Of a DNA stretch of 64,000 nucleotides, positions 37,088 through 61,810 are shown piece after piece; position 1 is the stretch's first letter, and the number at the start of each line of letters is the position of its first letter. Both the position numbers and the translations under genes were made by a program. The notes below the pieces were generated by a model. It did not search any database, was not told the DNA's origin, and was given only the letters and a program-made list of their open reading frames with translations. The DNA comes from Armatimonadota bacterium. Its GTDB lineage: Bacteria > Armatimonadota > Zipacnadia > Zipacnadales > UBA5352. The stretch is from positions 9,683 through 73,682 of the forward strand of contig JBNJEK010000001.1 of the NCBI GenBank assembly GCA_051745855.1. The letters run 5' to 3'.

Positions 37088-37110
37088 CGGCGCACACCGA
37101 GGAGATTGCG

Positions 37111-39584: not shown

Positions 39585-39676
39585 AGGGCCGCGCGCGGGC
39601 CTCTCCCCCCGGCCCCCTCTCCCGCACTTCGCGCAGCGAAGTGAACGGGACGAGGGGGAGAAGGACAGGGGCGCTG

Positions 39677-39698
39677 GCGGGCTGGAAGCCCGCGTTTT
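39677..39698 (+). terminator. Rho-independent terminator
   Basis: The stem GCGGGC-TGGAA-GCCCGC is followed by GTTTT. It is preceded by a longer imperfect hairpin at 39600-39660. Confidence 0.6.
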
Positions 39699-39782
39699 AG
39701 TCTGGAAATCCGAGACCTTTTCGCGCTCACAGGTGTTATTGATGACACGCGCAGATGAATCAGGCAGCGTGAACGGATACTG

Positions 39783-40760
39783 ATGAGAGAGGTTTTCTAC
39801 TCACACGCAATTCGCGAGGCGCTGGAGGAGGAGATGGCGCGCGACGAGCGCGTCATCCTCATTGGCGAGGATATTGCCGAATACGGCGGGGCATTCAAGA
39901 TCACCCGCGACATGGCGGAGCGTTTCGGCGCGCATCGGGTGCGCAATACGCCGATCAGTGAGAACGGCTTCGTCGGCGTGGCGGTCGGTGCGGCGATGAC
40001 CGGCCTGAGACCGGTCGCAGAGCTTATGTTCATGGATTTCCTCACGCTGGCGATGGACCAGCTTTGCAACCACGCGGCGAAATTTCGCTACCAGTACGGC
40101 GAGCAATGCACGATCCCGCTGGTGCTGCGCTGTCCGGCCGGGGCGGGGCGCTGCTACGGTCCGACACATTCACAGAGCCTCGAACGCTGGCTGATGAGCA
40201 CGCCGGGGTTGCTGGTGGCCGCGCCCGCGACCGCGGAGGACGCCAAGGGCATGCTCAAGTCCGCGATCCGCTGCGATGATCCGGTGGTCTTCATCGAGAG
40301 CAAGCTGCTCTATGGGAAGACGCAGGCTGTGCCGGAGGGTGATTATACGGTTCCGCTCGGCGAGGCGGTGGTTCGCCGCGAGGGCGAGCACGTCACGATC
40401 GTGGCATACTCGCGGATGGTGGATGAGGCGCTGCGGGCCGCCGAGGCGCTGGTCGAGCACGGTGTCGAGGCCGAGGTCATCGATCTGCGCACACTCGCGC
40501 CGCTGGACATCGACACGGTTGCCGCGTCGGTGGAGGCGACCGGCCGCGCAGTTGTGGTCGAGGAGGGAACGCTGACCGGTGGGGTTGCCGCGGAGGTGGC
40601 GCAGCGCATCACGGAGGAGTGTTTCGACGTGCTGGTAGCGCCGCCGATGCGCGTGGCGGCCCTCGACGTGCCGATCCCGTCCAGCCAGGTGCTGGAGGAG
40701 GCGGCGACACCGGACTGGCGTGACATTGCGCAGGCCGCCGCAGATGCCCTGAAGTACTGA
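39783..40760 (+). CDS. 2-oxoacid dehydrogenase E1 component beta subunit (transketolase-like), orphan
   Basis: Its full length matches PDH/BCKDH E1-beta (pyrimidine-binding plus C-terminal domain). No E1-alpha gene is adjacent. Confidence 0.85.
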   Translation: MREVFYSHAIREALEEEMARDERVILIGEDIAEYGGAFKITRDMAERFGAHRVRNTPISENGFVGVAVGAAMTGLRPVAELMFMDFLTLAMDQLCNHAAKFRYQYGEQCTIPLVLRCPAGAGRCYGPTHSQSLERWLMSTPGLLVAAPATAEDAKGMLKSAIRCDDPVVFIESKLLYGKTQAVPEGDYTVPLGEAVVRREGEHVTIVAYSRMVDEALRAAEALVEHGVEAEVIDLRTLAPLDIDTVAASVEATGRAVVVEEGTLTGGVAAEVAQRITEECFDVLVAPPMRVAALDVPIPSSQVLEEAATPDWRDIAQAAADALKY

Positions 40761-40776
40761 AGTGAGGAGAATAACC

Positions 40777-41655
40777 GTGGCCCCGGGCACTCTGGATGCG
40801 ACGATCATCGTTGTGAGTTACAACAAGCGCAAGTACACTGAGCTTTGCCTGACGAGCATGCTCCAGGGCGACCCGATGCCCGGACAGATCGTGGTGATTG
40901 ACAACGGCTCCACCGACGGGACGGTGCCCTTTCTCGAGGACGACTTTCCAGGGCAGGCGGAGGCGGAGGGCGTGCGCTTTGATCTGATCCGCAATGATTC
41001 GAACGTGGGAGCATGCACCGCGCGCAATCAGGGCCTGGCACTCGCCCTCGGTGAATACATCGGGTTCATGGACAATGACATCGCGGTGCGGAGCAGCGGA
41101 TGGCTGTCCACGCTGGCTTCGGTGCTGCGGGAAGATGACGACCACGGAATCGTCGGGCCGAAGCTGGTGTATCCTTTCGAGCCTTACAACATCCAGCACG
41201 CCGGCGCGGCGATCTCGAAGACAGGGCGAGTGAAGTATCTCGGCCGCGGTGAGCCGATTGACGCGCCTGAGCACAACAGGCGGCGTGAGGTGCAGTGTCT
41301 GATCAGTGCGTGCTGGCTGATGAAGTCCGAGATCCCCGAGTGCATCGGGGGGCTTGATGAAGTGTTCAACCCCGCGCAGTTCGAGGACTTTGACTTCTGC
41401 TACCGCGCGCGTGAGGCGGGGTGGACCGTGCTTTACGATCCGGTGGCCGAGATGTATCACTACGAGAGCGTCACCACGGATGCGTCGCCGGATGTCAACT
41501 ACAAGTACATCACGATCCGCAACGGCATGGAGTTCAAGCGGCGGTGGAAGCAGATGTTTGCCGAAGAGGACGGGCCGCCGGACGAAGAGTGCCAGTGGAA
41601 GCAGCTTGAGACGCGGCCGATCGAGCAGACGGGCATCCCACCGATCATCGACTGA
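40777..41655 (+). CDS. Glycosyltransferase family 2
   Basis: GT-A fold features are present (IIVVSYNK, DNGSTDGT, DxD FMDND). I prefer the GTG at 40777 because GAGGAG lies 7 nt upstream. Confidence 0.85.
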   Translation: MAPGTLDATIIVVSYNKRKYTELCLTSMLQGDPMPGQIVVIDNGSTDGTVPFLEDDFPGQAEAEGVRFDLIRNDSNVGACTARNQGLALALGEYIGFMDNDIAVRSSGWLSTLASVLREDDDHGIVGPKLVYPFEPYNIQHAGAAISKTGRVKYLGRGEPIDAPEHNRRREVQCLISACWLMKSEIPECIGGLDEVFNPAQFEDFDFCYRAREAGWTVLYDPVAEMYHYESVTTDASPDVNYKYITIRNGMEFKRRWKQMFAEEDGPPDEECQWKQLETRPIEQTGIPPIID

Positions 41656-41715
41656 CCGCAGCAGTTGCGATACGCACGGGGATGAGATGGATTATAATAA
41701 GGAGTTGAGACGCGG

Positions 41716-41970
41716 ATGTCAGACGGGCAGTTGAAGCAGCGGATCAAGGACATGATCGTCGAGCGCCTCTTCCTCGACGCCGACCCGAATGAGATCGAAG
41801 ATGATGAGAACCTGATGGAAAACTACGAGATCGACTCGGTGAATCTCTTCGAGATCGTCGTCGGGCTTGAGGAGGAGTTCGAGATCTCGTTTGAGGACGA
41901 AGATTTCAGCGTGGATCTCTTCGCCACGGTCAACAACCTTGCCGAGTACGTCGAGCAGAAGCGGAGTTGA
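41716..41970 (+). CDS. Acyl carrier protein
   Basis: It is an 84-aa acidic protein with the phosphopantetheine-site motif IDSVNLFE. Confidence 0.8.
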   Translation: MSDGQLKQRIKDMIVERLFLDADPNEIEDDENLMENYEIDSVNLFEIVVGLEEEFEISFEDEDFSVDLFATVNNLAEYVEQKRS

Positions 41971-41977
41971 CCGGATT

Positions 41978-42790
41978 GTGAGCGGCAGCGAGGAGCGACT
42001 GGTGACCTTCGAGAGCGGAGGGGAGCCGCTCCACGGTGTACTTCACGTGCCCCGCGAGCCGAGCGGAAATGTGTTGGTTTTCTGCCACCCTTTCGCCGAG
42101 GAGAAGAAGTGCGCCCACCGGACGATGGTGGAGGCGGCCCGGGCCTGCGCCGTGGCGGGGTGGGCGGTGCTGGCCTTCGATCAACGCGGCTGCGGCGACA
42201 GCCCCGGCGTATTCGGCGCCCAGGACCTCGCCAACTGGCGCGAGGACATTCGCAAGGCGATGGAGTGCGCCACGCGGGAGACGTCGGCGCGGGCAGGGCT
42301 ACTCGGGCTGCGACTCGGGGGCGCGCTTGCCGCGGAGGTCGCCGAGCATCACGCGGATGTCGCGTGTCTCGTGCTGTGGGAGCCGATCATCGACGGGGAG
42401 CGTTACATCAAGCAGAACCTGCGCCGCTCGATGATCAAGGCGATGATGACGCGTCACGAGGGGGGCGAGAAGAGCGAGGGCGCGGCGGCCGAAGCGGGCG
42501 CGCTGGGGGAGGGAACCGTGGATTTCGACGGTTACCGCGTCCCGGAGGCGATGCGCGAGCAGATCGAGCAGATCGACCTGCTGGAGCCGCCACCTCACTT
42601 TGAAGGCCCGACGCTGGTGCTCAACATTGGGGCCAGCGACAGCGTCTCCGAGCAGATGGAGCAGCTCGCCGATGCCTATCCTCAAGGCAGCGCCATCGCG
42701 GTGCGGCAGGAGCCGATCTGGCAGCGCATCGGCGTGATTGACGCAAACCCGACTATCTCAGCGACGGTTGATTGGTTGCGACAGCAGTGA
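41978..42790 (+). CDS. Alpha/beta hydrolase fold protein with Arg at the nucleophile-elbow position
   Basis: It shows alpha/beta hydrolase topology (FDQRGCGDS, then GLRLGG where the consensus is GxSxG). I inferred the GTG start just after the ACP stop. Confidence 0.7.
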   Translation: MSGSEERLVTFESGGEPLHGVLHVPREPSGNVLVFCHPFAEEKKCAHRTMVEAARACAVAGWAVLAFDQRGCGDSPGVFGAQDLANWREDIRKAMECATRETSARAGLLGLRLGGALAAEVAEHHADVACLVLWEPIIDGERYIKQNLRRSMIKAMMTRHEGGEKSEGAAAEAGALGEGTVDFDGYRVPEAMREQIEQIDLLEPPPHFEGPTLVLNIGASDSVSEQMEQLADAYPQGSAIAVRQEPIWQRIGVIDANPTISATVDWLRQQ

Positions 42791-43665
42791 GCGTAAGGCA
42801 GCGTGAAGCGACGCACAGGCATCTTTTCTTCGACAGCGACGGGCAGCGGGTACTCGGCGTACTGCAAACTCCCGACAGGCCGATGCGCCCGGGCGCGCTG
42901 GTCTTTCTGCACGGATGGGCCGGCTACAGGATCGGCCCGCATCAGATGTTCACCAAGGCGGCGCGGCAGGCTGCCGAGCTGGGCTTCGCATCGCTGCGCT
43001 TCGACTTCCGCGGCCGCGGCGACAGTCAGGGCGACGCGGCGGCCACGACACTTTCTACGATGATCGAGGACGCGCAGCGAGCGGTGGAAGTGGTCTGCGA
43101 CGAGACCGGTGCTGAGCGGGTCGCCCTGATCGGCGACTGCTCGGGCAGCGAGGTGGCGATCGGCGCGGCCACGCTTGATGAGCGCATCGACTCACTGGTG
43201 CTGTGGTCGGCGCCGATCGTGGCAGGCGACCGCTCCGAGGCTGACGCCGCGAAGCGCAGGAGTATGTACTCGACGTATCTCCGCAAGATCTTCCGGCGGG
43301 AGACGTGGTCGAAGCTGCTGGGCGGCCGGCTGCAGCCGGGGATGATCCTCAAGGCACTCACGCGCGGAGGGAAGGGCGCCGGTGAGGAGGGCGCAGAGAG
43401 CGACCGGGAGATCGACTGGTATCATCGCTTCGTGGATTTTGCCGGCGAGGTCATGCTTATCTACGGGGGAAACGACCCGACGACCGACAGCGCACTTGAG
43501 CACTACCGCGAACTGTCGCGGAAGGCCGGGCGCGAGCTCAACCATCACATCGTCGATGGGGCCAACCACGCCTTTTACTCGCTGGGCTGGGAGCAGGAGG
43601 TGCTCGAGGTGAGCCTCGAGTGGCTGTGCGAGCGCTACGCCGCGGGCGAGGGCGCCGATGGCTGA
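42787..43665 (+). CDS. Alpha/beta hydrolase with a Cys nucleophile elbow (GDCSG)
   Basis: It is paralogous to the upstream hydrolase (FDFRGRGDS...IGDCSGS). Its GTG start overlaps the upstream stop (GTGA). Confidence 0.7.
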   Translation: MSVRQREATHRHLFFDSDGQRVLGVLQTPDRPMRPGALVFLHGWAGYRIGPHQMFTKAARQAAELGFASLRFDFRGRGDSQGDAAATTLSTMIEDAQRAVEVVCDETGAERVALIGDCSGSEVAIGAATLDERIDSLVLWSAPIVAGDRSEADAAKRRSMYSTYLRKIFRRETWSKLLGGRLQPGMILKALTRGGKGAGEEGAESDREIDWYHRFVDFAGEVMLIYGGNDPTTDSALEHYRELSRKAGRELNHHIVDGANHAFYSLGWEQEVLEVSLEWLCERYAAGEGADG

Positions 43666-44815
43666 GCGAACACCCAGGCGGGTGATGCTGGTCAACCACG
43701 TGGGCGAGGTGAGCGGCGCGGAGGAGAGCATGCTCACGCTTGTGCGGCACCTTGACCGCGCGCGCTTCGAGCCGGTTGCGGCGGTGCCGGCGGGGCGGCT
43801 GGCCAGGGAGCTTGAAAAACTCGAGGTGCCGGTGAGGCTGATCCCGGAGTTGCGGCTGTCGCGGCGGAGCCTGTGGACCACGCTCGTTGGCGGGATAAAG
43901 CTGCGATCGTGGGCGGGCAGGGTGCGGAGTGTCGTTGAGGAAGCCGGAGCGCATCTCGTGGCGGCCAACAGCCTGACGACGGCGCTGGGCTGTGCGATGC
44001 GTGTAAGTGACGACTGGCCGATGGTCTGGCATGCGCGCGACCTGCAGGCGCCCCGGCGGGCGGTGGGTTACGTGGTGCCACGGGCGCGGCGCATCGCGGC
44101 GATCTCGGCCTGTGTGGCCGATGCGTTGATTGAAAGCCATCGCGACGCCCGATCGAAGACGGTCATGATTCACAACGGTGTTGACACACTGGCCTTCCAA
44201 CCGACGCGGACGGAGCTTGAGGTGCGCGAGGAACTTGGGCTCCCGGTGGCCGCTCCCGTGATCGGGACGATCGGTCAGCTTGTTCCGTGGAAGCGACAGG
44301 ACGTCTTTCTTGAGACTGCGGCGCATATCCTCGCGCACAACAAGGACGCGCACTTCCTGGTGGTGGGCGCGGATTTGTTCGGCGAACACCCCGACTACGT
44401 CGCTGAGCTTCACGCGCTGAGCGAGAGTCTCAATGTGAGCGATCGCGTGATCTTCACGGGCTTTCGTGAGGACATCGCGTCGGTTATGAGCGCGCTCGAT
44501 GTTCTGATACACACCGCTGAGAACGAGCCGCTGGGACGGGTAGTGCTGGAATCGATGAGCCTCGGCGTGCCGTGCGTTGCGGTGGACAGTTGCGGGCCGG
44601 CTGAGATCATCAGAGACGGCGACAGCGGCATCCTCGTATCCCGGCCTGATGCGCGTCAGATGGCCGCGCGCGTCGTCGAGTTGCTCTCGCGACAGGGCGG
44701 CGTGGAGCGCATGGGGCAGGCCGCGCGGCGCCGGATCAACGAATTCTTCAGCGCCGAGCGCATGGCGGAACTGACCGCGGACCTTTACGAGGAGGCGCTA
44801 ACCGCGACGCGGTGA
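43658..44815 (+). CDS. Glycosyltransferase family 4
   Basis: The GT-B C-terminal motif E..G.VVLESMSLGVPCVA is present. Its ATG overlaps the upstream gene by 8 nt. Confidence 0.85.
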   Translation: MAERTPRRVMLVNHVGEVSGAEESMLTLVRHLDRARFEPVAAVPAGRLARELEKLEVPVRLIPELRLSRRSLWTTLVGGIKLRSWAGRVRSVVEEAGAHLVAANSLTTALGCAMRVSDDWPMVWHARDLQAPRRAVGYVVPRARRIAAISACVADALIESHRDARSKTVMIHNGVDTLAFQPTRTELEVREELGLPVAAPVIGTIGQLVPWKRQDVFLETAAHILAHNKDAHFLVVGADLFGEHPDYVAELHALSESLNVSDRVIFTGFREDIASVMSALDVLIHTAENEPLGRVVLESMSLGVPCVAVDSCGPAEIIRDGDSGILVSRPDARQMAARVVELLSRQGGVERMGQAARRRINEFFSAERMAELTADLYEEALTATR

Positions 44816-45975
44816 TGAAGACGGATGCGTCGGATGACGATCGGCTTCACGTGGGAATCGACTGCCTGGTGGTCGCGGATCGGCCCTCCGGTGTCGAGCG
44901 GGCAGTCGTGGGGCTGGCGGAAGGCCTCGCTGAGATCGCGCCGGCGGACCAGCGGTTCAGTCTGATGGTGGCGGCCGGCCGCGAGGATGCGCTGCCGAGC
45001 GGAGAGGGCATTGCGCCCCTGGCGGCGCCGAGGTGGGCGGAGCGGAGGGCGGGTCGCGTCTTCTACGAGCAGGCGCTTGCGGCCACGCGACTGCGGGCGG
45101 AGCAGGTCGATGTGCTTCACGGGGCCGCCTACGTGCTGCCTCACAACTGGGAGGGGCCGTCGGTGGTGACAGTCCACGACGCCATCACCGTCTGCCACGA
45201 GCAGTGGTGTCAGTGGCACAACGTCATACACTACGGACTGGTCATGACGCGCAGCGCGCGCAATGCCAGCGCGGTGATTGTGCCAAGCGAGTTCACGAAG
45301 CGCGAGCTTGTCGAGCATGTCGGCGTTCAGAGGCGGCAGATTCGGGTCGTGCCCCTGGGCGTTGGTGATGAATTCGCGCCCGCCGGGGAGGATGCAGTCG
45401 AACGGGCGCGTCGGCGGCACGGATTGCCCGAGCGCTATGTGCTCTGCGTGGGGAATGTCGAGCCGCGCAAAAACCTGACGGCGGTCGTCAACGCCTTCAA
45501 CCGGGTCGCGGAGGAGACCCCGCACGGGCTGGTGATTGCCGGAAAGCGCGGGTGGAAGTGCGGTGAGATCTGCGCGGAGATGAAGCGGTCGCCTTTCTCC
45601 GAGAGGATCCGGTGGCTCGGCTGGGTGCCGCATGAAGACTTGCCGGCGCTTTACTCCGGTGCGGAGCTCTTCGTGCAGTGGTCGCTGCATGAGGGCTTCG
45701 GCCTGACGCCGCTGGAGGCGATGGCATGCGGGACACCGGCGGTCATATCCGACGGCGGTGCGCTGCCGGAGATCGCCGGTGATGCGGCGCGCGTGGTAGC
45801 GCTGAGCGAGGGGGCGGTGGGACTTTCCGGGGCGCTCGTCGAATTGGCAGGAGACGAGGACGCGCGGGCGGAGATGGCCGAGCGTGGCATCCGGCATGCG
45901 GTGAGATACACCTGGGCCGCGCACGCGGAGGCGGTCGCGCAGACCTACCGGGAGGTTGCCGGTGCGCAGGAGTGA
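44815..45975 (+). CDS. Glycosyltransferase family 4
   Basis: The GT4 motif EGFGLTPLEAMACGTPAV is present. Its start overlaps the upstream stop (TGATG). Confidence 0.85.
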   Translation: MKTDASDDDRLHVGIDCLVVADRPSGVERAVVGLAEGLAEIAPADQRFSLMVAAGREDALPSGEGIAPLAAPRWAERRAGRVFYEQALAATRLRAEQVDVLHGAAYVLPHNWEGPSVVTVHDAITVCHEQWCQWHNVIHYGLVMTRSARNASAVIVPSEFTKRELVEHVGVQRRQIRVVPLGVGDEFAPAGEDAVERARRRHGLPERYVLCVGNVEPRKNLTAVVNAFNRVAEETPHGLVIAGKRGWKCGEICAEMKRSPFSERIRWLGWVPHEDLPALYSGAELFVQWSLHEGFGLTPLEAMACGTPAVISDGGALPEIAGDAARVVALSEGAVGLSGALVELAGDEDARAEMAERGIRHAVRYTWAAHAEAVAQTYREVAGAQE

Positions 45976-47212
45976 ACGTCGTGGGCGGCTGGTCTACGTG
46001 CTCGGCAGTTTTCCGTCGCTGTCGGAGACGTTCATCCTGCGAGAGATGCTCGAGCTTGAGCGGAGGGGCTTCCAGCTTTCAATTCTGTCACTGGAGCCGG
46101 GGGAGGATGTGGTCCACGAGAGTGCGACGGAACTGGCGGACCGCACGGTCTATCGGCCGCCACCGCTGTCGTTGCGCTCGCTGATGGCGGGCGTGGTGGC
46201 GATGGTGCTGCGTCCCTTCGGCTTCTTCGGGGCGCTGCTCTACGCGCTCGGCTGCATCGCTCGTTCTCCCGGCGCCGCCAGCGAGGTGGTCCGGAGCTTC
46301 TGCGCGGCCGCGTTCTTCGCATGTGCCCTGCGCGGGACGCGCCCGAAGCATGTACACGCGCATTTCGCGTCGATGCCGGCGACAGCAGGCCTCCTGCTGG
46401 CGCAGATGCTGGAGACGACGTTCTCAGTTTCTGCGCACGCGAGGGACCTTTTCACCGACGAGTCCGTTCTGATGGACAGGAAGATGCGCGAGGCCGAGTT
46501 CGTGACCGTCTGCACGCAGTTCGGCCTCGAACAGCTCCGCCGTCAGCATCCAATGTCGAGCAGTGAGCGTCTCAATCTGATCTACCACGGGATCGACGTG
46601 GTGGAGCTTATCCCGTCGCCGGACCCGGTCAGCCTCGGAGATCCGCCGCTGATACTGTCGATCGGTCGGCTTGTGGAGAAGAAAGGCTTCCCGATCCTGC
46701 TGCGGGCGGCGGCGATGCTCAGACGCGAGGGCGTGGACTTCCGGCTGAGGATCGTCGGCACCGGACCAGAGGAGGCGGATCTGAGGCGGCTGGCATCGGG
46801 GCTGGCGCTTGAGGAATGCGTGGAGTTTGACGGGGCAATCGCGCACGAGGAACTGATCCCGCTTTTCTGCACGGCAGATCTCTTCGTGCTCGCGTCGATC
46901 GTCGCCAGCGATGGCGACCGCGACGGCCTGCCGAACGTGCTGCTGGAGGCGCTGGCGCTGGAGGTGCCGGTCGTCAGCACGCGCGTCTCCGCCATCCCCG
47001 AGTTGATCGAGCATGAGCGCACAGGCCTGCTTGCGAACCCCGGTGACCCGAAGGGACTCGCCGAGCATATGGAGCGCCTGCTCTTCGACGAGCAGCTTCG
47101 AGCGAAGGTCATCGAGCAGGGGCGCCGCGAGGTGGTTGAGCGCTTCGACGTGACGAGGAACGTCGGGACGCTCGCCGATCTCTTCAGCGAGGTCATGAAG
47201 CGCAGAAGATAA
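45962..47212 (+). CDS. Glycosyltransferase family 4 (WcaL-like)
   Basis: GGGAGGT lies 5 nt before the GTG. The GT4 C-terminal motif (DGLPNVLLEALA) is present. Confidence 0.8.
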   Translation: MRRSERRGRLVYVLGSFPSLSETFILREMLELERRGFQLSILSLEPGEDVVHESATELADRTVYRPPPLSLRSLMAGVVAMVLRPFGFFGALLYALGCIARSPGAASEVVRSFCAAAFFACALRGTRPKHVHAHFASMPATAGLLLAQMLETTFSVSAHARDLFTDESVLMDRKMREAEFVTVCTQFGLEQLRRQHPMSSSERLNLIYHGIDVVELIPSPDPVSLGDPPLILSIGRLVEKKGFPILLRAAAMLRREGVDFRLRIVGTGPEEADLRRLASGLALEECVEFDGAIAHEELIPLFCTADLFVLASIVASDGDRDGLPNVLLEALALEVPVVSTRVSAIPELIEHERTGLLANPGDPKGLAEHMERLLFDEQLRAKVIEQGRREVVERFDVTRNVGTLADLFSEVMKRRR

Positions 47213-47291
47213 ATAAGTGCCCGTGTGCAGTCGGAGAGGCCGGACCCGTTCCGGCCTGTGTCGTTGTCGTCCTGCCATCTTCATCTGAACG

Positions 47292-49109
47292 GTGAGTACT
47301 GTGAGCGACGCTCCTGACGATCGCGACGAACTGGACGAAACGAAGCCTTCGGAGAGAAGCGCGGGGGCTCAGATGACGATCGCCGCGATCATCATCAGCG
47401 CCTTCGGACTGCTCGGCAAGGTGCTCGGCTACGGCAAGGAGATCCTGATCGCCAACTGGTGGGGGCGGGGGGCGGCGGTCGATGCGTTTGTGGTCGTCTA
47501 CAAGTTCATCATCTTCCAGGTGTACACCAAGATTGAGAAGCTTCTGCGTCCCACCTACCTGCCGATCTTCGTCGATCACAGGTCTGAGGGCGAACAGCGA
47601 CAGGCGTGGCATTTCTTCCGCGTCATAGCGACGATCACATTCGTGGTGATGACGGCGATCTCAGTGGCCACCGTCATCTGGGCGCCGTGGATTGTGCGGA
47701 CGTTCTGGCCGGCGCTTGAACTGCCCGTGATCGGCGCGGAACTGCTGCGGATCTCCGCCGGCGCGCTGCTGCTGCTGGTCATGTCGGTGATGGTCGAGTT
47801 GACCCTGCACTCACACAAGGAGTTCACCATCCCGGCAATGGCCGACGCCGGCCGCCAGTTCGTGCTCTTCGGATGCATCGCGGGTCTGGTTGGCTTCGGC
47901 GTCTACGTCGCCGGGGAGCCCAGCGGCATGAAGGCTGCGGCGATCGGCGTACTTCTCGGTGGAGCGACAAGGCTTGTGATGCAGCTTCCGGCCCTCATTC
48001 GTCGCGCCCCTGACCTCCGTCCGGCCGCGCCCGGGAGCGACGAAGCGGGCCCTGTCCTCATTATCATATTCTTCTGGTGGTTTATCCTCCTCGCCGACGC
48101 CGTCCGCCACGTGGGGCGCAGGATTGGCGTCATCTCCGAGGCGACCGACGATGACCCGCGGTTGCTCGACCGCATCGCCGACTACGGCAAGGGCTCAACC
48201 TCCGACGTCGTGAAGATGTTCAGTCTCATCCCGCCGGTGATAGTGGGCCTGCTTTTCTCGATGCTGCGCGGCTACTTCGACAGCCGTTTCGGCACCGACG
48301 CAGGTGAGGGTGTCGTTGCGGCCCTCAACTACGGCCGAATGCTTGCCGACCTTCCGACATTGATCCTCCCCTTCGCTGTGAGTCTCGCCGTCTATCCCTT
48401 CGTGTCAGAGTGGGCCTCGCGCCAGGACAGGCAGGCGCTGGCGGACTCGCTGGTCTCGATGACCCGTGCGATGGTCTTCATCTTCCTCCCGGTGGCCCTC
48501 GGGATGATCGTGTTGGCGAATCCGATCATCGCGACCGCCTTCGAGCGGGGAGCGTTCACCGCACAGGACACCTCGGCGGTGACCCGCGCGCTCGTACCCT
48601 ACTCAGCTGGCCTGCCGTTCTTCGCGGTCGAAGCCTCGATCAACAACTGGTACTTCGCACTCGCCGACACCGCCACCCCCAACTACATCGGCGCGATCAT
48701 GGCGGTGCTGCACATCCTGATTGCCGGCTTCGGCGTCTACGCTCTCAGCGGCAGCATCGGCATCATCGCCGCGGCGCTGTCGGTGTCCAAGGCATTGAAG
48801 GTGATCGTGCTCTATGCCATGCTGCGCAGTCGCATCGGGGAGATCGATCGCGCGGCCGTGATGAGCTTCGTCAGCAGGATGCTTATCGCCACCGTCATCA
48901 TGATCGCGGTCGTCATCGCGATCCGGCAGGGCCTTGCGCCGATCCTGATGGTCGGCGGCACAGTCCACCGGCTCCTGTTTCTCGCCATCGTCGGCGTGTC
49001 CGGCGCCGGCGTCTACCTCGTGGCCGCCTGGGCGCTGCGCATCGAAGAGGTCGGGATGGTCGTCGAGTATGCCCGCGAGAAGATCTCCAGCAAGCTCGGG
49101 GGCAAGTAG
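47292..49109 (+). CDS. MOP-superfamily flippase (MurJ/Wzx-like polysaccharide biosynthesis protein)
   Basis: It has multiple TM helices with MurJ-like N-terminal helices. It carries an unusually long internal hydrophilic insert (about 290-370 aa). The start is uncertain: 47292 GTG or 47373 ATG. Confidence 0.75.
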   Translation: MSTVSDAPDDRDELDETKPSERSAGAQMTIAAIIISAFGLLGKVLGYGKEILIANWWGRGAAVDAFVVVYKFIIFQVYTKIEKLLRPTYLPIFVDHRSEGEQRQAWHFFRVIATITFVVMTAISVATVIWAPWIVRTFWPALELPVIGAELLRISAGALLLLVMSVMVELTLHSHKEFTIPAMADAGRQFVLFGCIAGLVGFGVYVAGEPSGMKAAAIGVLLGGATRLVMQLPALIRRAPDLRPAAPGSDEAGPVLIIIFFWWFILLADAVRHVGRRIGVISEATDDDPRLLDRIADYGKGSTSDVVKMFSLIPPVIVGLLFSMLRGYFDSRFGTDAGEGVVAALNYGRMLADLPTLILPFAVSLAVYPFVSEWASRQDRQALADSLVSMTRAMVFIFLPVALGMIVLANPIIATAFERGAFTAQDTSAVTRALVPYSAGLPFFAVEASINNWYFALADTATPNYIGAIMAVLHILIAGFGVYALSGSIGIIAAALSVSKALKVIVLYAMLRSRIGEIDRAAVMSFVSRMLIATVIMIAVVIAIRQGLAPILMVGGTVHRLLFLAIVGVSGAGVYLVAAWALRIEEVGMVVEYAREKISSKLGGK

Positions 49110-49113
49110 CCTG

Positions 49114-50283
49114 ATGGTCGACGCCGGCCGCATCACAGTCTGTCACGTGCTCGAGGCCACGGAGGGCGGCACCAGGCAGTATCTCAACGACGTGTTGCTC
49201 GGGCTTCCTGCCGACCGTTTCGAGCAGACTGCGGTGGTCTCCACCCTGCGCGCACCTGAATTCGCTGAGGACATCGAGCGTTTCCGCGAGGCCGGAGTGA
49301 GCGTGGAAGTCGTGGAGATGGTGCGCGAGATCGATCGCGAGCAGGACATGCGCGCGTACCGCGAGCTTCGCGCCTTCTTCAGGGCAAACGAGTTCGACGT
49401 CATTCATACGCACAGTTCGAAGGCCGGCTTCCTCGGTCGCGTCGCCGCGTGGCGGGCGCGTAACCCCGCCGTGAGAGTACATTCGCCACACGCTTTCGCT
49501 TTCGAGATGAACGCAGCGCCGTGGCGCAGGCTGCTTTTCCGCACCCTCGAGCGTCTCACCGGGCGCCTGACTCACCTGCTCGTGTGCACATGCGAGGGCG
49601 AGCGGGAAATCGCGGTTCGCAACCGGATCGTGCCGCCGGGTCGGGCCGCCGTAGTGCGCACCGGCGTCGATCTCAAGCGCTTTCACCCTCAGCCTCACGC
49701 ACATCGAATCCGCGAGGAAATCGGCCTGCCCGCGCGCCATCGGATCGTCGGCACGGTCGGCGCGATCGTCGAGCAGAAGGGACATCGAGCGCTGGTTGAG
49801 GCCGCGCCGGCCGTCATCGAGGAGATGCCGCACACCACATTCGTCATCGTCGGGGGCGGCGAGCTGCGTGAGGAGCTTGAAGCGCGCGTCAATGAGCTTG
49901 GTCTCGGCCGTCGGTTTCGCTTTCTCGGCTACCGAGATGATGTCCCGCGCGTGCTTGCCACCTTCGACCTCTTCGTGATGCCCTCGCTGTGGGAGGGCAT
50001 GCCCTACGCGCTGGTGGAGGCGATGGCCGTCGGCGTGCCGGTCGTTGGGAGCGACATTCCGGGGATCGCCGACATCGTGCGTCCTCGGCAGACCGGCCGA
50101 CTGGCGCCCCCCGGTGACCCTGCGGCGCTTGCAGACACGATCCTCACGGCGCTGCGGGAGGACGGGAAGTCCGCCACAATGGCGGAGACGGCTCGCGGGA
50201 TGGTCATGAGTGAGCACTCTCGTAAGCGCATGCTGGCCTCGCTGACGGCGTGTTACGTCCGGCTGATGGAGGACAGAGCGTGA
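49114..50283 (+). CDS. Glycosyltransferase family 4
   Basis: The GT4 motif EGMPYALVEAMAVGVPVV is present. It starts 5 bp after the flippase stop. Confidence 0.85.
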   Translation: MVDAGRITVCHVLEATEGGTRQYLNDVLLGLPADRFEQTAVVSTLRAPEFAEDIERFREAGVSVEVVEMVREIDREQDMRAYRELRAFFRANEFDVIHTHSSKAGFLGRVAAWRARNPAVRVHSPHAFAFEMNAAPWRRLLFRTLERLTGRLTHLLVCTCEGEREIAVRNRIVPPGRAAVVRTGVDLKRFHPQPHAHRIREEIGLPARHRIVGTVGAIVEQKGHRALVEAAPAVIEEMPHTTFVIVGGGELREELEARVNELGLGRRFRFLGYRDDVPRVLATFDLFVMPSLWEGMPYALVEAMAVGVPVVGSDIPGIADIVRPRQTGRLAPPGDPAALADTILTALREDGKSATMAETARGMVMSEHSRKRMLASLTACYVRLMEDRA

Positions 50284-50993
50284 GCAGGGGCAGGCAGGAC
50301 GTGGCCGACGGGCGTCTGCTTCGAGTGACCGACCTCGGTCGGATGGGGCATGCGGAGGCTGAGCGGCTGCAGGAGCGGCTTGTCGAGACGCGCCGCGCGG
50401 GCCGGGTGCCGGATACGCTGCTGCTGGTCGAGCATGACCCGGTGGTGACGATCGGCAGCGCGGTGGAGGAGGGGGCGGCCGAGGTGAGCGCGCAGTTGCT
50501 GGAATCGGCGGGCGCCGAAATGCGTCAGGTAAGCAGAGGCGGGCGAGCGACCTTTCACGGTCCGGGGCAGATCGTCGGCTATCCGATTCTCGATCTCCGG
50601 CAGCACCGCCGCGATCTGCACTGGTACCTTCGGTCGCTCGAGCAGGTGATCATCGACGCACTGGGCGACTTCGGGCTGGACGCCGGGCGCGAGGACGGCC
50701 TGACGGGCGTCTGGGCGGGGGGCAGGAAGATCGCCAGCATCGGGATCGCTGTACGCGGATGGGTGACGTGGCATGGATTTGCGCTCAATCTGGACGTTGA
50801 CGCCCACTGGTGGCGGATGATAGACCCCTGCGGGCTGCGCCCCGATCAGATGGGATCGCTGAGCGATCTCATGACGTCATGTCCATCACGCGAGAGCTTC
50901 TGCGATGCGCTTGCCAGGCAGTTGGGCCACGTCTTCGATCTGCGGGTGCAGAAGATAGTCACGACGGAACTTTTCGAGGAGTCGGCCTTCTAA
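50280..50993 (+). CDS. lipB: Lipoyl(octanoyl) transferase LipB
   Basis: The LipB core is present (FHGPGQIVGYPIL, K-containing GVWAGGRKIASIG). Its GTG start overlaps the upstream stop, and GGAGGA lies 6 nt upstream. Confidence 0.85.
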   Translation: MSRGRQDVADGRLLRVTDLGRMGHAEAERLQERLVETRRAGRVPDTLLLVEHDPVVTIGSAVEEGAAEVSAQLLESAGAEMRQVSRGGRATFHGPGQIVGYPILDLRQHRRDLHWYLRSLEQVIIDALGDFGLDAGREDGLTGVWAGGRKIASIGIAVRGWVTWHGFALNLDVDAHWWRMIDPCGLRPDQMGSLSDLMTSCPSRESFCDALARQLGHVFDLRVQKIVTTELFEESAF

Positions 50994-53101: not shown

Positions 53102-53650
53102 ATGCGTCGCTTCATCGCAACAGCCGTTGTCACATCGCTCGTCGTTTTCGTGGTGGCGGGAGTCGCATCAGCCGCCATGGTGAAGATCGTAGTTGACGCG
53201 GCCGACTACACCTCGATCAAGCCGTCGATGGTGAAGACCACGACCGGCTCTGATGCGGTCGCGAACAAGGCGTACATCCAGATCCCGCTGCGCCGGCCGC
53301 ACGCTACCGAGGAGACGGGCCCCGCCGATGATGGGAATGCAGTGTACAAGATCAATGTGCCGGCGTCCGGCACGTACCAGCTCTGGGCTCGCACCTGGTG
53401 GTACGATTCGTGTGGGAACTCCTTCTTCGTGATCGTGGACAACAAGCCGTCGGTTTACATCGAGGATCCCACCTATCAGACATGGCACTGGGTGAAGGGC
53501 CCCCGGCTCACACTCAGCGCGGGGGAGCACACCATCCGCATTCAGAATCGCGAGGATGGTGCGCGGCTCGATCAGTTCATGCTGATCAACAACACGCAGT
53601 ATGTCCCGACTCGCATTGAGAGTCGCACATCACAGTACATCGTGAAGTAG
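53102..53650 (+). CDS. Secreted CBM-like beta-sandwich protein
   Basis: GGGAGGA lies 6 nt before the ATG. It has a signal peptide and a C-terminal pattern typical of carbohydrate-binding jelly-rolls (GEHTIRIQNREDGARLDQFMLI). Confidence 0.7.
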   Translation: MRRFIATAVVTSLVVFVVAGVASAAMVKIVVDAADYTSIKPSMVKTTTGSDAVANKAYIQIPLRRPHATEETGPADDGNAVYKINVPASGTYQLWARTWWYDSCGNSFFVIVDNKPSVYIEDPTYQTWHWVKGPRLTLSAGEHTIRIQNREDGARLDQFMLINNTQYVPTRIESRTSQYIVK

Positions 53651-53692
53651 CGGACACCACCCCCGAACTTATAACAGGGACTGGAACCGACG

Positions 53693-55720
53693 ATGACCAG
53701 GACGCAGCGATCACCCGGCATCGGAGGCACGCTCGCCGCCATCGCGGCCGCGCTCGTGGTATTGAGCGCGGCTGCAGCGGCACGTACGCCTGCCTTCGCT
53801 CAGGATGCGCCGAAGATGCTCGAAGATACCGCCGAGGCGCCCTACGCCCTCGCGGCCAACCTCCACGTGACAGACCCCGACGCCCTTCACCTGCAGATCT
53901 TCCTCGAACGCCAGGATGCTGACAACGGCTACGTCATCACCTGCACCGCGCGTGAGACATTCGTCGAACGTGTCGTAGACGGTGAGAACGTCCGGATCGG
54001 TCACGGCCGACCGATCGGCGAATTGGTCGCCGACAGCGATCTCGAGTTGACGGTCCGCCGCGACAACTGGCGGATCGTGTTCGTGCTTGACCGGCAGGTG
54101 CTCGCGCAGGCGTGGGACAGCACCCTTGCCGGCGGCGGAGTCGGGTATTCGGTCACAGGCGGCGAGGTCGGCGATGCGCTGGTTCAGCCGCTCGGCAGGG
54201 TGTACATGACCGATGACTTCATGCGCGTCGGTGAAGAGGCCAGTCAGTGGGAACCTGTCAGCGGCACGTGGGAGACGCAGGAACTGCGGGTAGATGAGCA
54301 GAGCGAGCGGATGGAGGCGGACAAGTCCGCGAACGCCTTCAGCTACTGGGGCAAGGGCGGTGAAGAAGAGCCGGCACTGGCCTCGACTGGCTACTGGTTC
54401 TGGAATAACTACCTGGTCGCCGCGGCCGTGCGCGCATCGGAGACAGATCCGCTGGGCCTCGTCGCGTACTACCAGGACCCGGAGAATTACCTGCTCGCCC
54501 GCTGGACTTCTGCCGTGTCGGAGGCGGTCGACGCGAACCTGCTTCAGCTTATCGGTGTTCGCGACGGCGAGCGATCGGTGCTCGCCGAGACCAGTGGCGG
54601 CCACCTCCCGGGACAGTGGTATCAGCTCGAGCTTCGTATCTGCGACGGAGTGGTGCAGTGTCTGGTGGATGACGAGCCGAGGCTGGTCGCGCACTTCGAC
54701 GCCTTCGGACAGGGCCAGCCCGCCCTTTACTGCGAGGGGGAGCGTGGCACATTCTTCGACAGTGTGGCGATCGAGGACTGGGAGGTTCTGAGCGAAGACT
54801 TCGAGCGAACGGCGCCGGGGAAGTGGGTCGTGAGTTCCGGTGACTGGAATCTCGACGGCGGCGCGATGGTCGCGGAGGGTGACGGTCCGCGCCTGGTGGT
54901 CACCGGCAGGCCCGACTGGCAGGGCTACTGGGTCGCCGCGACCGTGGAGATGCGGGGCGCGGCGGGGATCGCCGTCTGTGCCAATGACTCATCGATGTAC
55001 GGGCTGAGATTCGGGACACAGGGCTCCGGTGTGGAGTACGAGGGCCAGGCTCAGTTAGTGCGCGTGGCGGATGGGACCACCGAGGTGCTTTCCTCCGCGC
55101 CCGCGCAGATCGCCCCGGGCAGCAGGCATCGGCTGAAGGTCGTGGCGGATGATGGGCTGCTGACCGGATATCTGGATGGAAAACGGGTGCTTGATGCGTA
55201 CGATGCCGACGCGACCACAGGGCGCATCGGACTGGTCGCCGGGGGAGATGGGGCGGTTCATTTTGACGATGTCTACCTCACGATGATTCCGCCGAAGCGC
55301 ATCGCGCGGGTCACCAAGGAGTTCGCCGAGGATGACGCTCACCCCGAGATGGCGGAGTGGGCCTCCACGCGCGCTCCATGGCTCAAGCCTGACGAGGATG
55401 ACGTGGTCTGGTGGACGAAAGGTGATTACTTCGGCGACAAGACGATTACCCTTGAGATTCCGGGTGTCGAGGCCGCCGATGGCTCCGTCAGACTGACGCT
55501 CGAGGCCGCGCCCGGTGAGGAAGGCTCCGGGGCGACGCTCGTCATTGCGACGGTCGAGGGTGCCGCGAGCGTCACGGCCACGCTGACGGTGGACGGTGAA
55601 GAGATCGGTGAGGAGATAGTCGAGGTCGAGAGCGATCCCTGCCCGGTGCGTTTTGAGCGGAAGGGCACGTGGATCGTCGCTTCAATCGATGGTACTGTTG
55701 TTTTCAATGTAAAGCGCTGA
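53693..55720 (+). CDS. Secreted multi-domain LamG/DUF1080-like (concanavalin-type) protein
   Basis: It has a signal peptide and at least two DUF1080-like jelly-roll units (GKWVVSSGDWNLDGG...HFDDVYLT). Confidence 0.8.
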   Translation: MTRTQRSPGIGGTLAAIAAALVVLSAAAAARTPAFAQDAPKMLEDTAEAPYALAANLHVTDPDALHLQIFLERQDADNGYVITCTARETFVERVVDGENVRIGHGRPIGELVADSDLELTVRRDNWRIVFVLDRQVLAQAWDSTLAGGGVGYSVTGGEVGDALVQPLGRVYMTDDFMRVGEEASQWEPVSGTWETQELRVDEQSERMEADKSANAFSYWGKGGEEEPALASTGYWFWNNYLVAAAVRASETDPLGLVAYYQDPENYLLARWTSAVSEAVDANLLQLIGVRDGERSVLAETSGGHLPGQWYQLELRICDGVVQCLVDDEPRLVAHFDAFGQGQPALYCEGERGTFFDSVAIEDWEVLSEDFERTAPGKWVVSSGDWNLDGGAMVAEGDGPRLVVTGRPDWQGYWVAATVEMRGAAGIAVCANDSSMYGLRFGTQGSGVEYEGQAQLVRVADGTTEVLSSAPAQIAPGSRHRLKVVADDGLLTGYLDGKRVLDAYDADATTGRIGLVAGGDGAVHFDDVYLTMIPPKRIARVTKEFAEDDAHPEMAEWASTRAPWLKPDEDDVVWWTKGDYFGDKTITLEIPGVEAADGSVRLTLEAAPGEEGSGATLVIATVEGAASVTATLTVDGEEIGEEIVEVESDPCPVRFERKGTWIVASIDGTVVFNVKR

Positions 55721-55770
55721 TCGGCGCTGTCGCGCAACGTGAGAATGTGGCGTGCTGTGAGGAATCCGCG

Positions 55771-60027: not shown

Positions 60028-60097
60028 TGAGCGCCGAAGATAACCCGGGCGGCGCCAGGCGCATGCGCTCGGCGCCGCCTTTTCGTGGGAGGGGAGC

Positions 60098-61777
60098 ATG
60101 GCACAGGCGCAATTGCGGGGTAACGCAGACGACAGCCGCGCGAAAATCGGGCGGATAGCCGGGATCGTGGTGGTGCTGGCGGTTGCGCTGGCCGTCCGGT
60201 TGATCGGCATCGGCTGGGGGCTGCCCGATGACACGCATCTCTTCTCCTATCACCCGGATGAGTTTCACTCGCTCCGCGGGGCACTTTCGTTGGCGCTTGG
60301 CGATGCGAATCCGCACTTCTTCAACTACGGCAGCCTCTACCTTTACCTCGTTGCGGCTGCCGCGGCCCTTGCCAATCCCACGCTCTTCTCACAGGTTGCC
60401 ACAGCGACACCCGGAGGCCCGGTGTTGCCTGAGGCCCTGCGCGAGTGGACCTTCGACGCCCGGATCGTGACGGTGTTGCTTGCGGTCGCGACGGTGGCGG
60501 TGGTGTACGCGACGGCTCGTCGGATCTGGGGGCATCGCGAGGGCCTCGCGGCGGGGCTGCTGCTGGCGCTGGCGCCGCTGCATGTGCTGCACTCGCACTA
60601 CGCGACGGTGGACGTGCCCGGTGCATTCTTCACCGCGTTGGCTTGTTATTTCGCGGTGGCGATGGTGGATGAGCTTAGCTGGCGGAATGTGTTGTGGGCG
60701 GGAGCGGCGTCGGGGCTCGCGGCGAGTATGAAGTACTCAGGCGGGGTGGCGCTGGTGGCGCCGCTGATGGCGTGGGCGATCGTCCGGTGGCGGAAGCGGG
60801 GAGGCGAAGAGGGCGCCTCGTGGAGAGCGTTGGTGGTGATGCCGCTTGTTGCTTTTGCGGCATTCGCATTGACCTCGCCTTACACGTTCATTGACTGGTC
60901 GAGCGCATGGCGTGACATCTCCTTTGAGATGCAACACATGCAGGCAGGCGACGACCCGGGGATGATCGCGCTTTACCCGAGCGGCTGGCTTTTCCATCTC
61001 GGCAACGTGGCACAGGGGAGCGGGTACATCATGCTCGCGGCCGCGGCGGTCGGCCTCGGCACGGGGCTTATGCTGAGACGTCGAGCGCTCTGGCCGCTGC
61101 TGGTGTTCGGCGTGCTGGTATTCGCGATGATCGGTGGCGCGCAGGTGCGTTACGCGCGTTACGCGGTCCCGCTTATACCCCTCGTGGCGGTGTTGGCGGG
61201 CGGAATCGTATCGGAGGACCTTTTCGCGGCGGTTCGCGGCGGCGCCTGGATCACCGCCGGAGCGATCTCAGTGTTGATGGTAGGTTCGGTGCTGGCCTCG
61301 GGGATGATGAGCTACCGCATGCTGGATCGGCTCGTCGCCACCAATGCTCGCGCACAGGCGCTGGAGGTGCTGGAGCGGGAGGTGCCTGAGAAGGGAAGGA
61401 TCGGGCTGATCACCGAGCCGTGGTTCTACCATCCGCCAGTGGACTACTGCAACGGCGGCGTGGCGTTGCGGAGCAACCCGCTCTGGGGAGCGTACCGCGA
61501 TCCGGTCCGCGATTTTGCGATCCTCGGCCTCGATGGCGAGGTCCTGCGCGAGCAGATGCCGGACGCGGTCGTTGTTACCAGGTTCGAGGTTGGCGTCCGC
61601 CTGGCGGCCGGGGATGAAGAGGCTGAGAACTTCATGCGTGTACTCGATGACTCGGGCTACGAGCGGATCAGCTGGTTCCTCAATGTGCCGTGGGGGAGGG
61701 GGGGCGCTCGGCCTCTCGCGCAGGATCTGACCTACCCCTTCCCGTGGATTGAACTGTGGATTCGCGAGGCCGACTGA
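60098..61777 (+). CDS. GT39/GT83-type (PMT/ArnT-like) membrane glycosyltransferase
   Basis: It has N-terminal TM helices with the DD/DE loop motif (GLPDDTHLFSYHPDE) and multiple TM helices. Confidence 0.8.
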   Translation: MAQAQLRGNADDSRAKIGRIAGIVVVLAVALAVRLIGIGWGLPDDTHLFSYHPDEFHSLRGALSLALGDANPHFFNYGSLYLYLVAAAAALANPTLFSQVATATPGGPVLPEALREWTFDARIVTVLLAVATVAVVYATARRIWGHREGLAAGLLLALAPLHVLHSHYATVDVPGAFFTALACYFAVAMVDELSWRNVLWAGAASGLAASMKYSGGVALVAPLMAWAIVRWRKRGGEEGASWRALVVMPLVAFAAFALTSPYTFIDWSSAWRDISFEMQHMQAGDDPGMIALYPSGWLFHLGNVAQGSGYIMLAAAAVGLGTGLMLRRRALWPLLVFGVLVFAMIGGAQVRYARYAVPLIPLVAVLAGGIVSEDLFAAVRGGAWITAGAISVLMVGSVLASGMMSYRMLDRLVATNARAQALEVLEREVPEKGRIGLITEPWFYHPPVDYCNGGVALRSNPLWGAYRDPVRDFAILGLDGEVLREQMPDAVVVTRFEVGVRLAAGDEEAENFMRVLDDSGYERISWFLNVPWGRGGARPLAQDLTYPFPWIELWIREAD

Positions 61778-61810
61778 TGACAGGTTGTGCGTCCGGTGGT
61801 ATGATCGTCA

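Follow-up and report, generated by a model that had tools for sequence, protein, structure and literature searches.

Why should a 2-oxoacid dehydrogenase subunit, an acyl carrier protein (ACP) and an octanoyltransferase be encoded within a string of glycosyltransferase genes? The question is raised by a stretch of 64,000 nucleotides (hereafter, the window) from an Armatimonadota bacterium of the class Zipacnadia (assembly GCA_051745855.1, contig JBNJEK010000001.1, positions 9,683 to 73,682 of the forward strand), in which the genes for an E1-beta subunit, an ACP and LipB stand among genes for glycan assembly, all named genes of the string being on the plus strand. An earlier note on this DNA left two explanations side by side, namely acyl or lipoyl-type chemistry used for polysaccharide decoration and housekeeping genes that happen to be scattered. 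Tentatively, at somewhat less than an even chance, we favour a module spread over two loci, in which thiamine diphosphate (ThDP), lipoyl and ACP chemistry would build an acyl group decorating a Wzx/Wzy-type glycan. With similar reserve, E1-beta would supply the beta chains of an alpha2beta2 E1 that is peculiar to this lineage and belongs to the polysaccharide system, and would not be a stray pyruvate dehydrogenase (PDH) gene. Three features that bear on the question had escaped the earlier note: the split of E1 over two operons, the pairing of a Cys-dependent hydrolase with a pseudo-enzyme, and the continuation of the cluster beyond lipB.

The E1-beta gene and its missing partner

Gene families were called by Pfam and NCBIfam profile scans of the predicted genes of the window. 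The product of the gene at 39783..40760 has the Transket_pyr plus Transketolase_C architecture (Pfam), scores 372 bits against the PDH E1-beta subfamily model NF006667 (cut-off 321) and finds its closest solved relatives among the E1-beta chains of PDH and branched-chain 2-oxoacid dehydrogenase (BCKDH), i.e. 1ik6, 1um9 and 1w85 (E ~1e-85). By its domains and this cut-off, it is assigned to the E1-beta subunits of the heterotetrameric, ThDP-dependent 2-oxoacid dehydrogenases (PDH, BCKDH or acetoin type).

The claim that this gene is real and lacks an E1-alpha partner holds throughout the window. Tblastn with the E1-alpha and ketosynthase (KS) proteins of a relative, combined with Pfam scans covering almost every predicted gene, revealed no E1-alpha, E2, E3, LipA or KS in the 64 kb. 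The possibility raised earlier, that E1-alpha lies just outside the locus in an inverted segment, was rejected, as tblastn with the E1-alpha of a 76%-related genome drew a blank on both strands of the 64 kb. The only other Transket_pyr plus Transketolase_C gene of the window (22274-23215, minus strand) forms part of a split transketolase, the Transketolase_N half of which (23219-24076, minus strand; Pfam) was considered as the missing partner and discarded, since its own C-terminal subunit adjoins it along with rpiB (21769-22269, minus strand); a Fe-ADH gene (24086-25213, minus strand) also lies beside this pair. An adjacent E1-alpha is likewise absent upstream of E1-beta in all relatives with a string of this type, and in one metagenome-assembled genome (MAG) it is encoded elsewhere.

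The partner operon in related genomes

This MAG, of a Candidatus Zipacnadales bacterium (GCA_052745275.1), carries on contig JBRALA010000124 a five-gene operon with E1-alpha as its last gene, apart from the contig that holds E1-beta and the family 2 glycosyltransferase (GT2) gene next to it (JBRALA010000225). The operon encodes, in order, a 174-aa Biotin_lipoyl plus E3_binding protein, a FabG-like ketoreductase (KR), a FabF-like KS, a second KS resembling a chain-length factor (CLF; hereafter KS') and E1-alpha, and the identical layout recurs in a second genome. We take this lipoyl carrier-KR-KS-KS'-E1-alpha operon, which lies outside the window, as locus A and the string of the window as locus B. 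In other Armatimonadota, whose E1-beta is 74-76% identical to that of the window, the order KS-KS'-E1-alpha-E1-beta occurs with 4-nt overlaps (L007, L092-94 and L098 in our numbering of loci); KS and KS' overlap by 4 nt in L007 and L090. The E1-alpha present in relatives is of the PDH type.

The KS retains its active-site Cys (ACASG), while KS' is Cys-less (AGGTSSG or QGLASAG), measures about 320 aa and comprises the N-terminal domain only, in the manner of a CLF. An active KS translationally coupled to a Cys-less partner, as expected of a KS/CLF pair, is what was found, the genes being those of the relatives and not of the window. The lipoyl carrier (174-176 aa) keeps the lipoyl-Lys context (TEKAT) and the motif of a peripheral subunit-binding domain (PSBD; PARRLARDHG). 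Its match to E2 models stops after the first ~170 positions, so that a catalytic core is missing; the protein ends after the E3_binding domain, and the KR gene begins 14 nt before the stop of the carrier. In gene content the two loci complement each other: an ACP, missing beside the KS/CLF/KR set, is encoded in the string, as are the LipB required by the lipoyl carrier and the E1-beta required by E1-alpha.

Conservation of the string and the E1 of a deeper lineage

For comparison, 174 loci were classified by tblastn with the proteins of the window. The identical E1-beta protein occurs in four Armatimonadota MAGs, and the sources given for its near relatives are Armatimonadota, Candidatus Zipacnadia or WS1. 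With hyd2 and hyd1 denoting two alpha/beta-hydrolase-fold proteins and GT4 a family 4 glycosyltransferase, the order E1-beta-GT2-ACP-hyd2-hyd1-GT4x3-flippase-GT4-LipB is kept in every close relative with a sufficiently long contig (L005/L016, L008/L009, L010-L021, L099, L175 and L179). E1-beta is the best-conserved gene of these strings (71-93% identical, with neighbours down to 37-62%), and GT2 always follows it. Upstream, the colinear relatives show four contexts, among them an SGL lactonase gene (family of the window), an aldehyde dehydrogenase gene (L008) and a MazE/RND block on the opposite strand (L175). Since the string is colinear in close relatives although its upstream contexts differ, the arrangement is judged to exceed chance. 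The region downstream of LipB is likewise colinear in L179, and LipB, a protein with seven transmembrane helices (7-TM) and Wzy_C follow in this order in L179/L180. A metagenome scan with E1-beta showed no contiguous KS-CLF-E1-alpha-E1-beta-GT2 among five close relatives.

The string of L099 has an insertion between GT2 and ACP (1951-4173), which encodes a 740-aa glycyl-radical enzyme of the PFL2/3 dehydratase type (TIGR01774, 509 bits; cut-off 678). This PFL-like gene was considered as a link to pyruvate and set aside, being of the dehydratase type and confined to one lineage.

A different Armatimonadota lineage, reached from a hyd1 homolog, carries a complete E1 at the head of the string (L182-L184), in the order E1-alpha-E1-beta-GT2-ACP-[hyd2::hyd1 fusion]-GT4x3-flippase-GT4-Wzy_C. 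Identity to the window is 63% for E1-beta and 28-53% for the other genes; there is no KS before E1 and no LipB inside. In a neighbour-joining tree, the deep nodes of which are unreliable, the Armatimonadota E1-beta proteins form one clade, apart from outgroups with operonic E1-alpha-E1-beta-E2; L182/184 are basal, and the loci of the KS type are nested among those of the string type. E1 thus has KS/CLF as its partner on one side and GT2-ACP-hydrolases on the other, in a chain that different lineages would have broken at different points, a pattern to be expected of one functional system and hard to obtain from chance adjacency. In every outgroup locus with a contig reaching far enough upstream (from Chloroflexota, Dormibacterota, Firmicutes and other groups), E1-alpha stands directly 5' of an E1-beta that is 49-57% identical; most of the outgroup loci have an E2 lipoyl-domain gene directly 3', and a handful have none within reach. 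Loss of the adjacent catalytic E2 and gain of glycosyltransferase or KS neighbours are thus specific to this clade.

The acyl carrier protein and the hydrolase pair

The ACP of the string (41716..41970; Pfam PP-binding) appears to be a dedicated one. Its best NCBIfam match is AmcB, the ACP of cispentacin formation, at 60 bits (cut-off 80); the serine of its IDSV sequence (DSV) is conserved in 14 orthologs. In L181 and L182, too, the fused hydrolase gene comes immediately after one for an ACP. The two genes that follow, hyd2 (42002..42790) and hyd1 (42883..43665), have as best and reciprocal matches the models of exosortase-A-associated hydrolases 2 and 1, with both scores below the curated cut-offs (TIGR03101, 135 bits against 203; TIGR03100, 121 bits against 168). 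A fused homolog from Armatimonadota (P0363) reaches 190.5 bits with TIGR03100, above 168, and 180 bits with TIGR03101, below 203. As in the context that defines the family, hyd1 and hyd2 occur as an adjacent pair beside an ACP in an exopolysaccharide locus. Scans of nearly all predicted genes of the window gave no match to Exosortase_EpsH, and no PEP-CTERM gene was seen in it.

Alignment to solved Ser-esterases places a Cys in the nucleophile elbow of hyd1 (GDCSG), and the triad Cys86-Asp198-His229 is invariant in 15 orthologs. For hyd2, alignment to such esterases places an Arg at the nucleophile position (GLRLG), and there is no C-terminal catalytic His; the Arg is invariant in 16 orthologs. 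The orthologs of hyd2 also share an invariant PFAEEKKCAHR motif (residues 30-40; 42089-42121) at the position of the oxyanion-hole loop of active hydrolases, and it is here that the pseudo-enzyme may have its functional site. When 1.84 billion representatives were searched exhaustively, 139 relatives were recovered below 1e-30; for the module, which is widespread in exopolysaccharide loci, there are 9393 representative clusters at E up to 1e-3. Among the 150 best representatives, 47 are hyd2::hyd1 fusions and 146 have the hyd1 Cys, with the Arg present in the N-terminal half of at least 44 of the 47 fusions; such fusions occur in Lentisphaeria and Kiritimatiellia as well. On these observations, hyd2 and hyd1 form an obligate unit of a Cys-enzyme and a pseudo-enzyme that would work with an ACP, for which a thioester acyl-enzyme intermediate would follow naturally. 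To our knowledge, the module of ACP, hydrolase 1 and hydrolase 2 has no biochemical characterisation.

LipB and the lipoyl metabolism of the hosts

LipB, the octanoyl-ACP:protein octanoyltransferase (50280..50993; TIGR00214, 153 bits against a cut-off of 83.6), aligns with LipB of Thermus (2qhs) in its RGG..HGPGQ motif, the Lys of RKIASIG and the Cys of PCG, the last of which is conserved in orthologs. By these residues, it is read as a bona fide LipB with catalytic Cys and Lys.

The copy numbers of E2 and lipB were taken from a published KEGG Orthology (KO) table with 47 MAG columns, which concern genomes other than that of the window (PMC10290634, Supplementary file 11). K00627 (PDH E2) is zero in 47 of 47 columns, a count that covers K00627 only (not sucB, bkdB or a separate catalytic domain) and MAGs that are incomplete. 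K03801 (lipB) occurs at most once per Zipacnadia MAG, with lipM in its place in Hebobacteria; lpd, lipA and gcvH are mostly present, and the copies per MAG range from 0 to 3 for pdhA and from 0 to 2 for pdhB (PMC10290634). Zipacnadia are described in the same work as anaerobic fermenters using pyruvate:ferredoxin oxidoreductase (PFOR), and its account of them makes no mention of pyruvate dehydrogenase (PMC10290634). In the window and in the partner operons of its relatives, no E2 combining a lipoyl domain with a catalytic core was found, and the 174-176-aa carrier of the relatives' loci was the only protein of the kind.

With at most one lipB per Zipacnadia MAG and GcvH present, the copy in the window almost certainly has a housekeeping duty as well, and it is very probably the only copy in its genome, serving GcvH too. 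The earlier note held that a special role for lipB would fall if no other lipB existed and this copy clearly served PDH or 2-oxoglutarate dehydrogenase (OGDH). Half of this is borne out by the KO table, which has no more than one lipB per Zipacnadia MAG and GcvH as a client. The position of LipB in the string fits a lipoyl-dependent step but is no more than suggestive of one, being no independent proof. The gene for the closest LipB outside such a string (56% identical; GCA_964552795.1, L178 at 8607-10648) adjoins one for dihydrolipoamide dehydrogenase (E3), with an overlap at the stop of the latter; this lpd-LipB arrangement is the classical context, with an E1_dh gene about 8 kb upstream.

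Organisation of the wider cluster

The transcription unit would start in a 198-nt intergenic gap (39585..39782, plus strand), which contains a weak terminator-like hairpin (39677-39693; 7-bp stem, GTTTTAG, a weak match to the consensus). Terminator-like sites number 9 in the region with 7.9 expected by chance, and since this count is at chance level, the gap is the firmer evidence for E1-beta as first gene of the unit. Of the description of E1-beta as the first gene after a terminator, the former half is upheld and the latter is not. The genes reported to follow are all present in that order on the plus strand, with short or negative spacers: after 16 nt the GT2 gene (40777..41655 with the start of the public gene calls, in a reading frame that opens at 40762; Pfam and NCBIfam), the ACP-hydrolase trio, three overlapping GT4 genes (43658-44815, 44815-45975 and 45962-47212; Pfam) that overlap their neighbours by 8, 1 and 14 nt, a flippase of the MurJ/MOP family (47373..49109; Pfam MurJ, TIGR01695 199 bits against a cut-off of 235) with a presumably Wzx-like role, a fourth GT4 gene (49114..50283; Pfam) and lipB. 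The GTGA stop/start overlap that joins the fourth GT4 gene to lipB can be read directly from the sequence (50280-50283).

The string does not end at lipB and runs on to at least 63863; lipB is therefore embedded and not flanking. A 227-aa 7-TM protein (51082-51765; seven helices, no Pfam match, function unassigned) and a Wzy_C polymerase/ligase-like protein (51768-53099; Pfam) come next, followed by the remainder of the glycan cluster (53102..63863; Pfam scans), which is colinear in L179. It encodes a secreted 180-aa protein, a 675-aa 3keto-disac_hyd-like protein, a giant tetratricopeptide repeat (TPR) protein of 1452 aa (55669-60027, conserved in L179), a PMT_2/GT-C enzyme (60098-61777; Pfam) and a Wza-like Poly_export plus SLBB exporter (62379-63863; Pfam). 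The 7-TM protein is present together with LipB in L179/L180 and, like LipB, absent from the string of L182. As a hidden E2 catalytic domain it was rejected, being a seven-helix membrane protein without a Pfam match; its single-sequence AlphaFold model (pLDDT 49) was too poor for a fold search. Upstream of the string (32125-39584) lie genes for ClpC, PIN/TRAM, IspDF, a 492-aa secreted unknown and an SMP-30/gluconolactonase-like protein, a set found ahead of it in no family but that of the window (UBA5352), the flanks being different in other lineages. Farther upstream, a 627-aa protein (28609-30492) consists almost wholly of WD40 repeats.

Proposed mechanism and alternative explanations

The mechanism proposed here starts from what was observed, namely which genes are present and which linkages are conserved, an E1 divided between two operons, a lipoyl carrier with no core, a KS/CLF/KR set with no ACP, an ACP and Cys-hydrolase pair with no loader, the signatures of catalytic residues and the lack of a called PDH E2. 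Every chemical step, substrate and product beyond this we infer. LipB, with a LipA encoded elsewhere, would lipoylate the free-standing carrier. E1 could dock on the PSBD of the carrier, decarboxylate a 2-oxoacid (pyruvate being the default guess) and reductively acylate the lipoyl arm. The acyl group, with no E2 core for transfer to coenzyme A (CoA), might then prime the KS/CLF or the dedicated ACP, and KS/CLF and KR would build a short (3-hydroxy)acyl-ACP. Together with hyd2, hyd1 would take over the acyl group from the ACP as a thioester and pass it to the sugar repeat unit or its lipid carrier, and the glycosyltransferases, flippase, Wzy and Wza would assemble and export the glycan. By analogy with the exosortase-type trio and its AMP-forming ligase, hyd1/hyd2 are favoured as the off-loading step, with E1, carrier and KS as the loading step. 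Taken as a complete CoA-independent acyl relay, from split E1 through the core-less lipoyl carrier, KS/CLF or ACP and hyd1/hyd2 to the glycan, the scheme is rather unlikely to be right in every link. In broader terms, these anaerobic Armatimonadota probably use PDH-type chemistry for the acylation of surface polysaccharides rather than for central metabolism. As to the choice left by the earlier note, decoration is favoured for E1-beta and the ACP, in view of a first gene that stays constant despite changes of flank, a complete E1 in a deep lineage and an E1-alpha that travels with carrier, KR, KS and CLF.

Several points weigh against this interpretation. The E1-beta exceeds the cut-off of the PDH E1-beta subfamily and shows the high conservation expected of a housekeeping enzyme, and conserved gene order can persist in any case without functional coupling. 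LipB is a single-copy gene in Zipacnadia MAGs that must serve GcvH, and it is missing from the string of L182. The trio of ACP and hydrolases is paired in exosortase-A systems with an AMP-forming ligase and not with E1, so that the link to E1 is not general to the module. We know of no case in which an acyl-lipoyl domain primes a KS. Locus A was seen only in the Zipacnadales MAG (E1-beta 72% identical) and in a second relative, neither being the species of the window, and the absence of E2 has the scope given above. Some Zipacnadia MAGs, moreover, are listed with 2-3 pdhA and 0-2 pdhB (PMC10290634, Supplementary file 11), and this excess may reflect extra E1 paralogs or KO mis-assignment.

In the main alternative, nothing more than hitch-hiking is involved: E1 would be the PDH or 2-oxoacid E1 of the organism and LipB a general enzyme, both being dispersed genes co-transcribed with a glycan operon. 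Such an origin agrees with the curated score and high conservation of E1-beta, with a bona fide LipB of at most one copy per MAG that has an obvious client in GcvH, with the lpd neighbour of the closest LipB outside the string and with the absence of LipB from the string of L182; the glycyl-radical insertion of L099 shows, too, that unrelated genes can lodge in the string. It fits poorly with hosts that are PFOR-using anaerobes, with 0 of 47 MAG columns for K00627 and with a lipoyl/PSBD protein that, as the only one found, has no catalytic domain. Nor does it account for an E1-beta-GT2 junction that outlasts changes of flank, a complete E1 heading the same string in a deep lineage, or an E1-alpha translationally coupled to KS/CLF instead of E2/E3. 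Overall, we regard hitch-hiking as unlikely, though less so than the other alternatives.

Two further proposals explain parts of the evidence. An E1 without E2 and E3 could act as a ThDP-dependent carboligase, forming a two-carbon branch from pyruvate on a keto-sugar of the repeat unit, a role proposed for AviB1/AviB2, Plm8/Plm9 and related pairs; ACP, hydrolases and LipB would be unrelated to it. An E1-alpha/beta pair at the head of a glycosyltransferase string, with no E2 catalytic domain nearby, would suit this role; stand-alone PDH-E1-like alpha/beta pairs are reported to attach two-carbon branches to deoxysugars (PMC4802897), and C-4 hydroxyethyl-branched sugars are known from Gram-negative polysaccharides (PMC4753412). 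The proposal is nonetheless improbable, given that the scanned genes of the window include no NDP-sugar 4,6-dehydratase, ketoreductase or other deoxysugar gene and the string of L182 no NDP-deoxysugar gene, that true PDH/BCKDH E1-beta chains are the nearest relatives by sequence, and that the conserved ACP and the coupling of E1-alpha to KR, KS/CLF and a lipoyl plus PSBD carrier would go unexplained. The parts could otherwise supply a cofactor, KS/CLF, KR and ACP making octanoyl-ACP in the manner of mitochondrial type II fatty-acid synthesis and LipB lipoylating the carrier and GcvH. The donor of LipB is indeed octanoyl-ACP, the ACP and LipB share one string, and KS and KR share the partner operon with a lipoyl protein. 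Yet the ACP keeps to hyd2 and hyd1, and not to LipB, even in lineages without LipB in the string, neither locus has a dehydratase or enoyl reductase, and an E1 at the head of a glycosyltransferase string finds no explanation; we give cofactor supply very little credence.

If the two-locus acyl-building module does exist, it would assign a function to the E1 and lipoyl genes of strict anaerobes which rely on PFOR and lack a recognisable PDH E2, and components of 2-oxoacid dehydrogenases would be serving in a way not described before. Delivery from a lipoyl swinging arm to a ketosynthase or ACP instead of CoA would open a new route into type II fatty-acid and polyketide chemistry, and the first mechanistic clues to the widespread exopolysaccharide-locus module of ACP and hydrolases 1 and 2 would be at hand. 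Even with a housekeeping E1, the split of E1-alpha and E1-beta over two conserved operons calls for caution in pathway calling from MAGs.

Comparison with known systems

The PDH, BCKDH and acetoin dehydrogenase complexes (Geobacillus 1w85, Thermus 1um9) share with the present system the two domains of E1-beta and a carrier with canonical lipoyl-Lys and PSBD. They differ in that alpha and beta are here placed in different operons, no E2 core was found, and the neighbours are KS/CLF/KR on the one side and glycosyltransferase, ACP and hydrolase genes on the other. Hydrolases 1 and 2 of the exosortase A (PEP-CTERM/EpsH1) systems show the same adjacency after an ACP within an exopolysaccharide locus; the partners in those loci are an AMP-ligase and a PLP-decarboxylase, and E1 stands in that place here. 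The AcoC-type E2 (NF011457), in which a lipoyl domain is fused to an alpha/beta-hydrolase-fold acyltransferase, may serve as precedent, by analogy, for enzymes of this fold that take acyl groups from a lipoyl arm. NF011457 matches the lipoyl carrier at positions 4-123 and the hyd1 domain of the fusion at 70-332 (E 9e-9), with scores of 35-51 bits against a cut-off of 307 and with the domains here on separate proteins of separate loci; the similarity of hyd1 to AcoC (35 bits) appears real but weak and is treated as a lead only. Type II systems with KS/CLF (cispentacin AmcF/AmcG/AmcB; FabF/FabG) likewise combine an active KS and a Cys-less partner with a FabG-like KR and a small ACP. Models for AmcF and AmcB are among the matches, AmcB being the best for the ACP and FabF models fitting the KS better, all below equivalog cut-offs; compared with the cispentacin type, KS' is short, there is no adenylating loader, and the pair is coupled to E1-alpha.

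E1-like alpha/beta pairs without E2 and E3 are also found in glycosylation clusters, as AviB1/AviB2 and Plm8/Plm9 (PMC4802897). Those clusters have deoxysugar genes and no lipoyl carrier, KS/CLF or ACP-hydrolase module, and the present system shows the reverse. The closest working analogy is QncN/QncL/QncM (SclQ1-4) of the tetrahydroisoquinoline and scleric acid pathways, in which glycolyl-ACP, and not a CoA ester, arises from the cooperation of an E1/transketolase-like ThDP pair with a lipoyl domain and an ACP reserved for the purpose (PMC6335953). A comparable set of parts is available here, with E1-beta and ACP in the window and E1-alpha and lipoyl carrier in the partner operon of the relatives. 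The two are likened by their parts and not by sequence homology: QncL/SclQ4 has an acyltransferase domain beside its lipoyl domain, which the present carrier lacks, and the Qnc system feeds a non-ribosomal peptide synthetase, whereas the string belongs to a Wzx/Wzy glycan cluster with KS/CLF. A narrow literature search, and hence a weak negative, returned no matching description of a system with E1, KS, lipoyl protein and ACP. The parts are members or near-members of known families; what is new is their combination, in which an E1 split over two operons goes with a lipoyl carrier devoid of a core, with KS/CLF and with an ACP and Cys-hydrolase pair in a Wzx/Wzy cluster.

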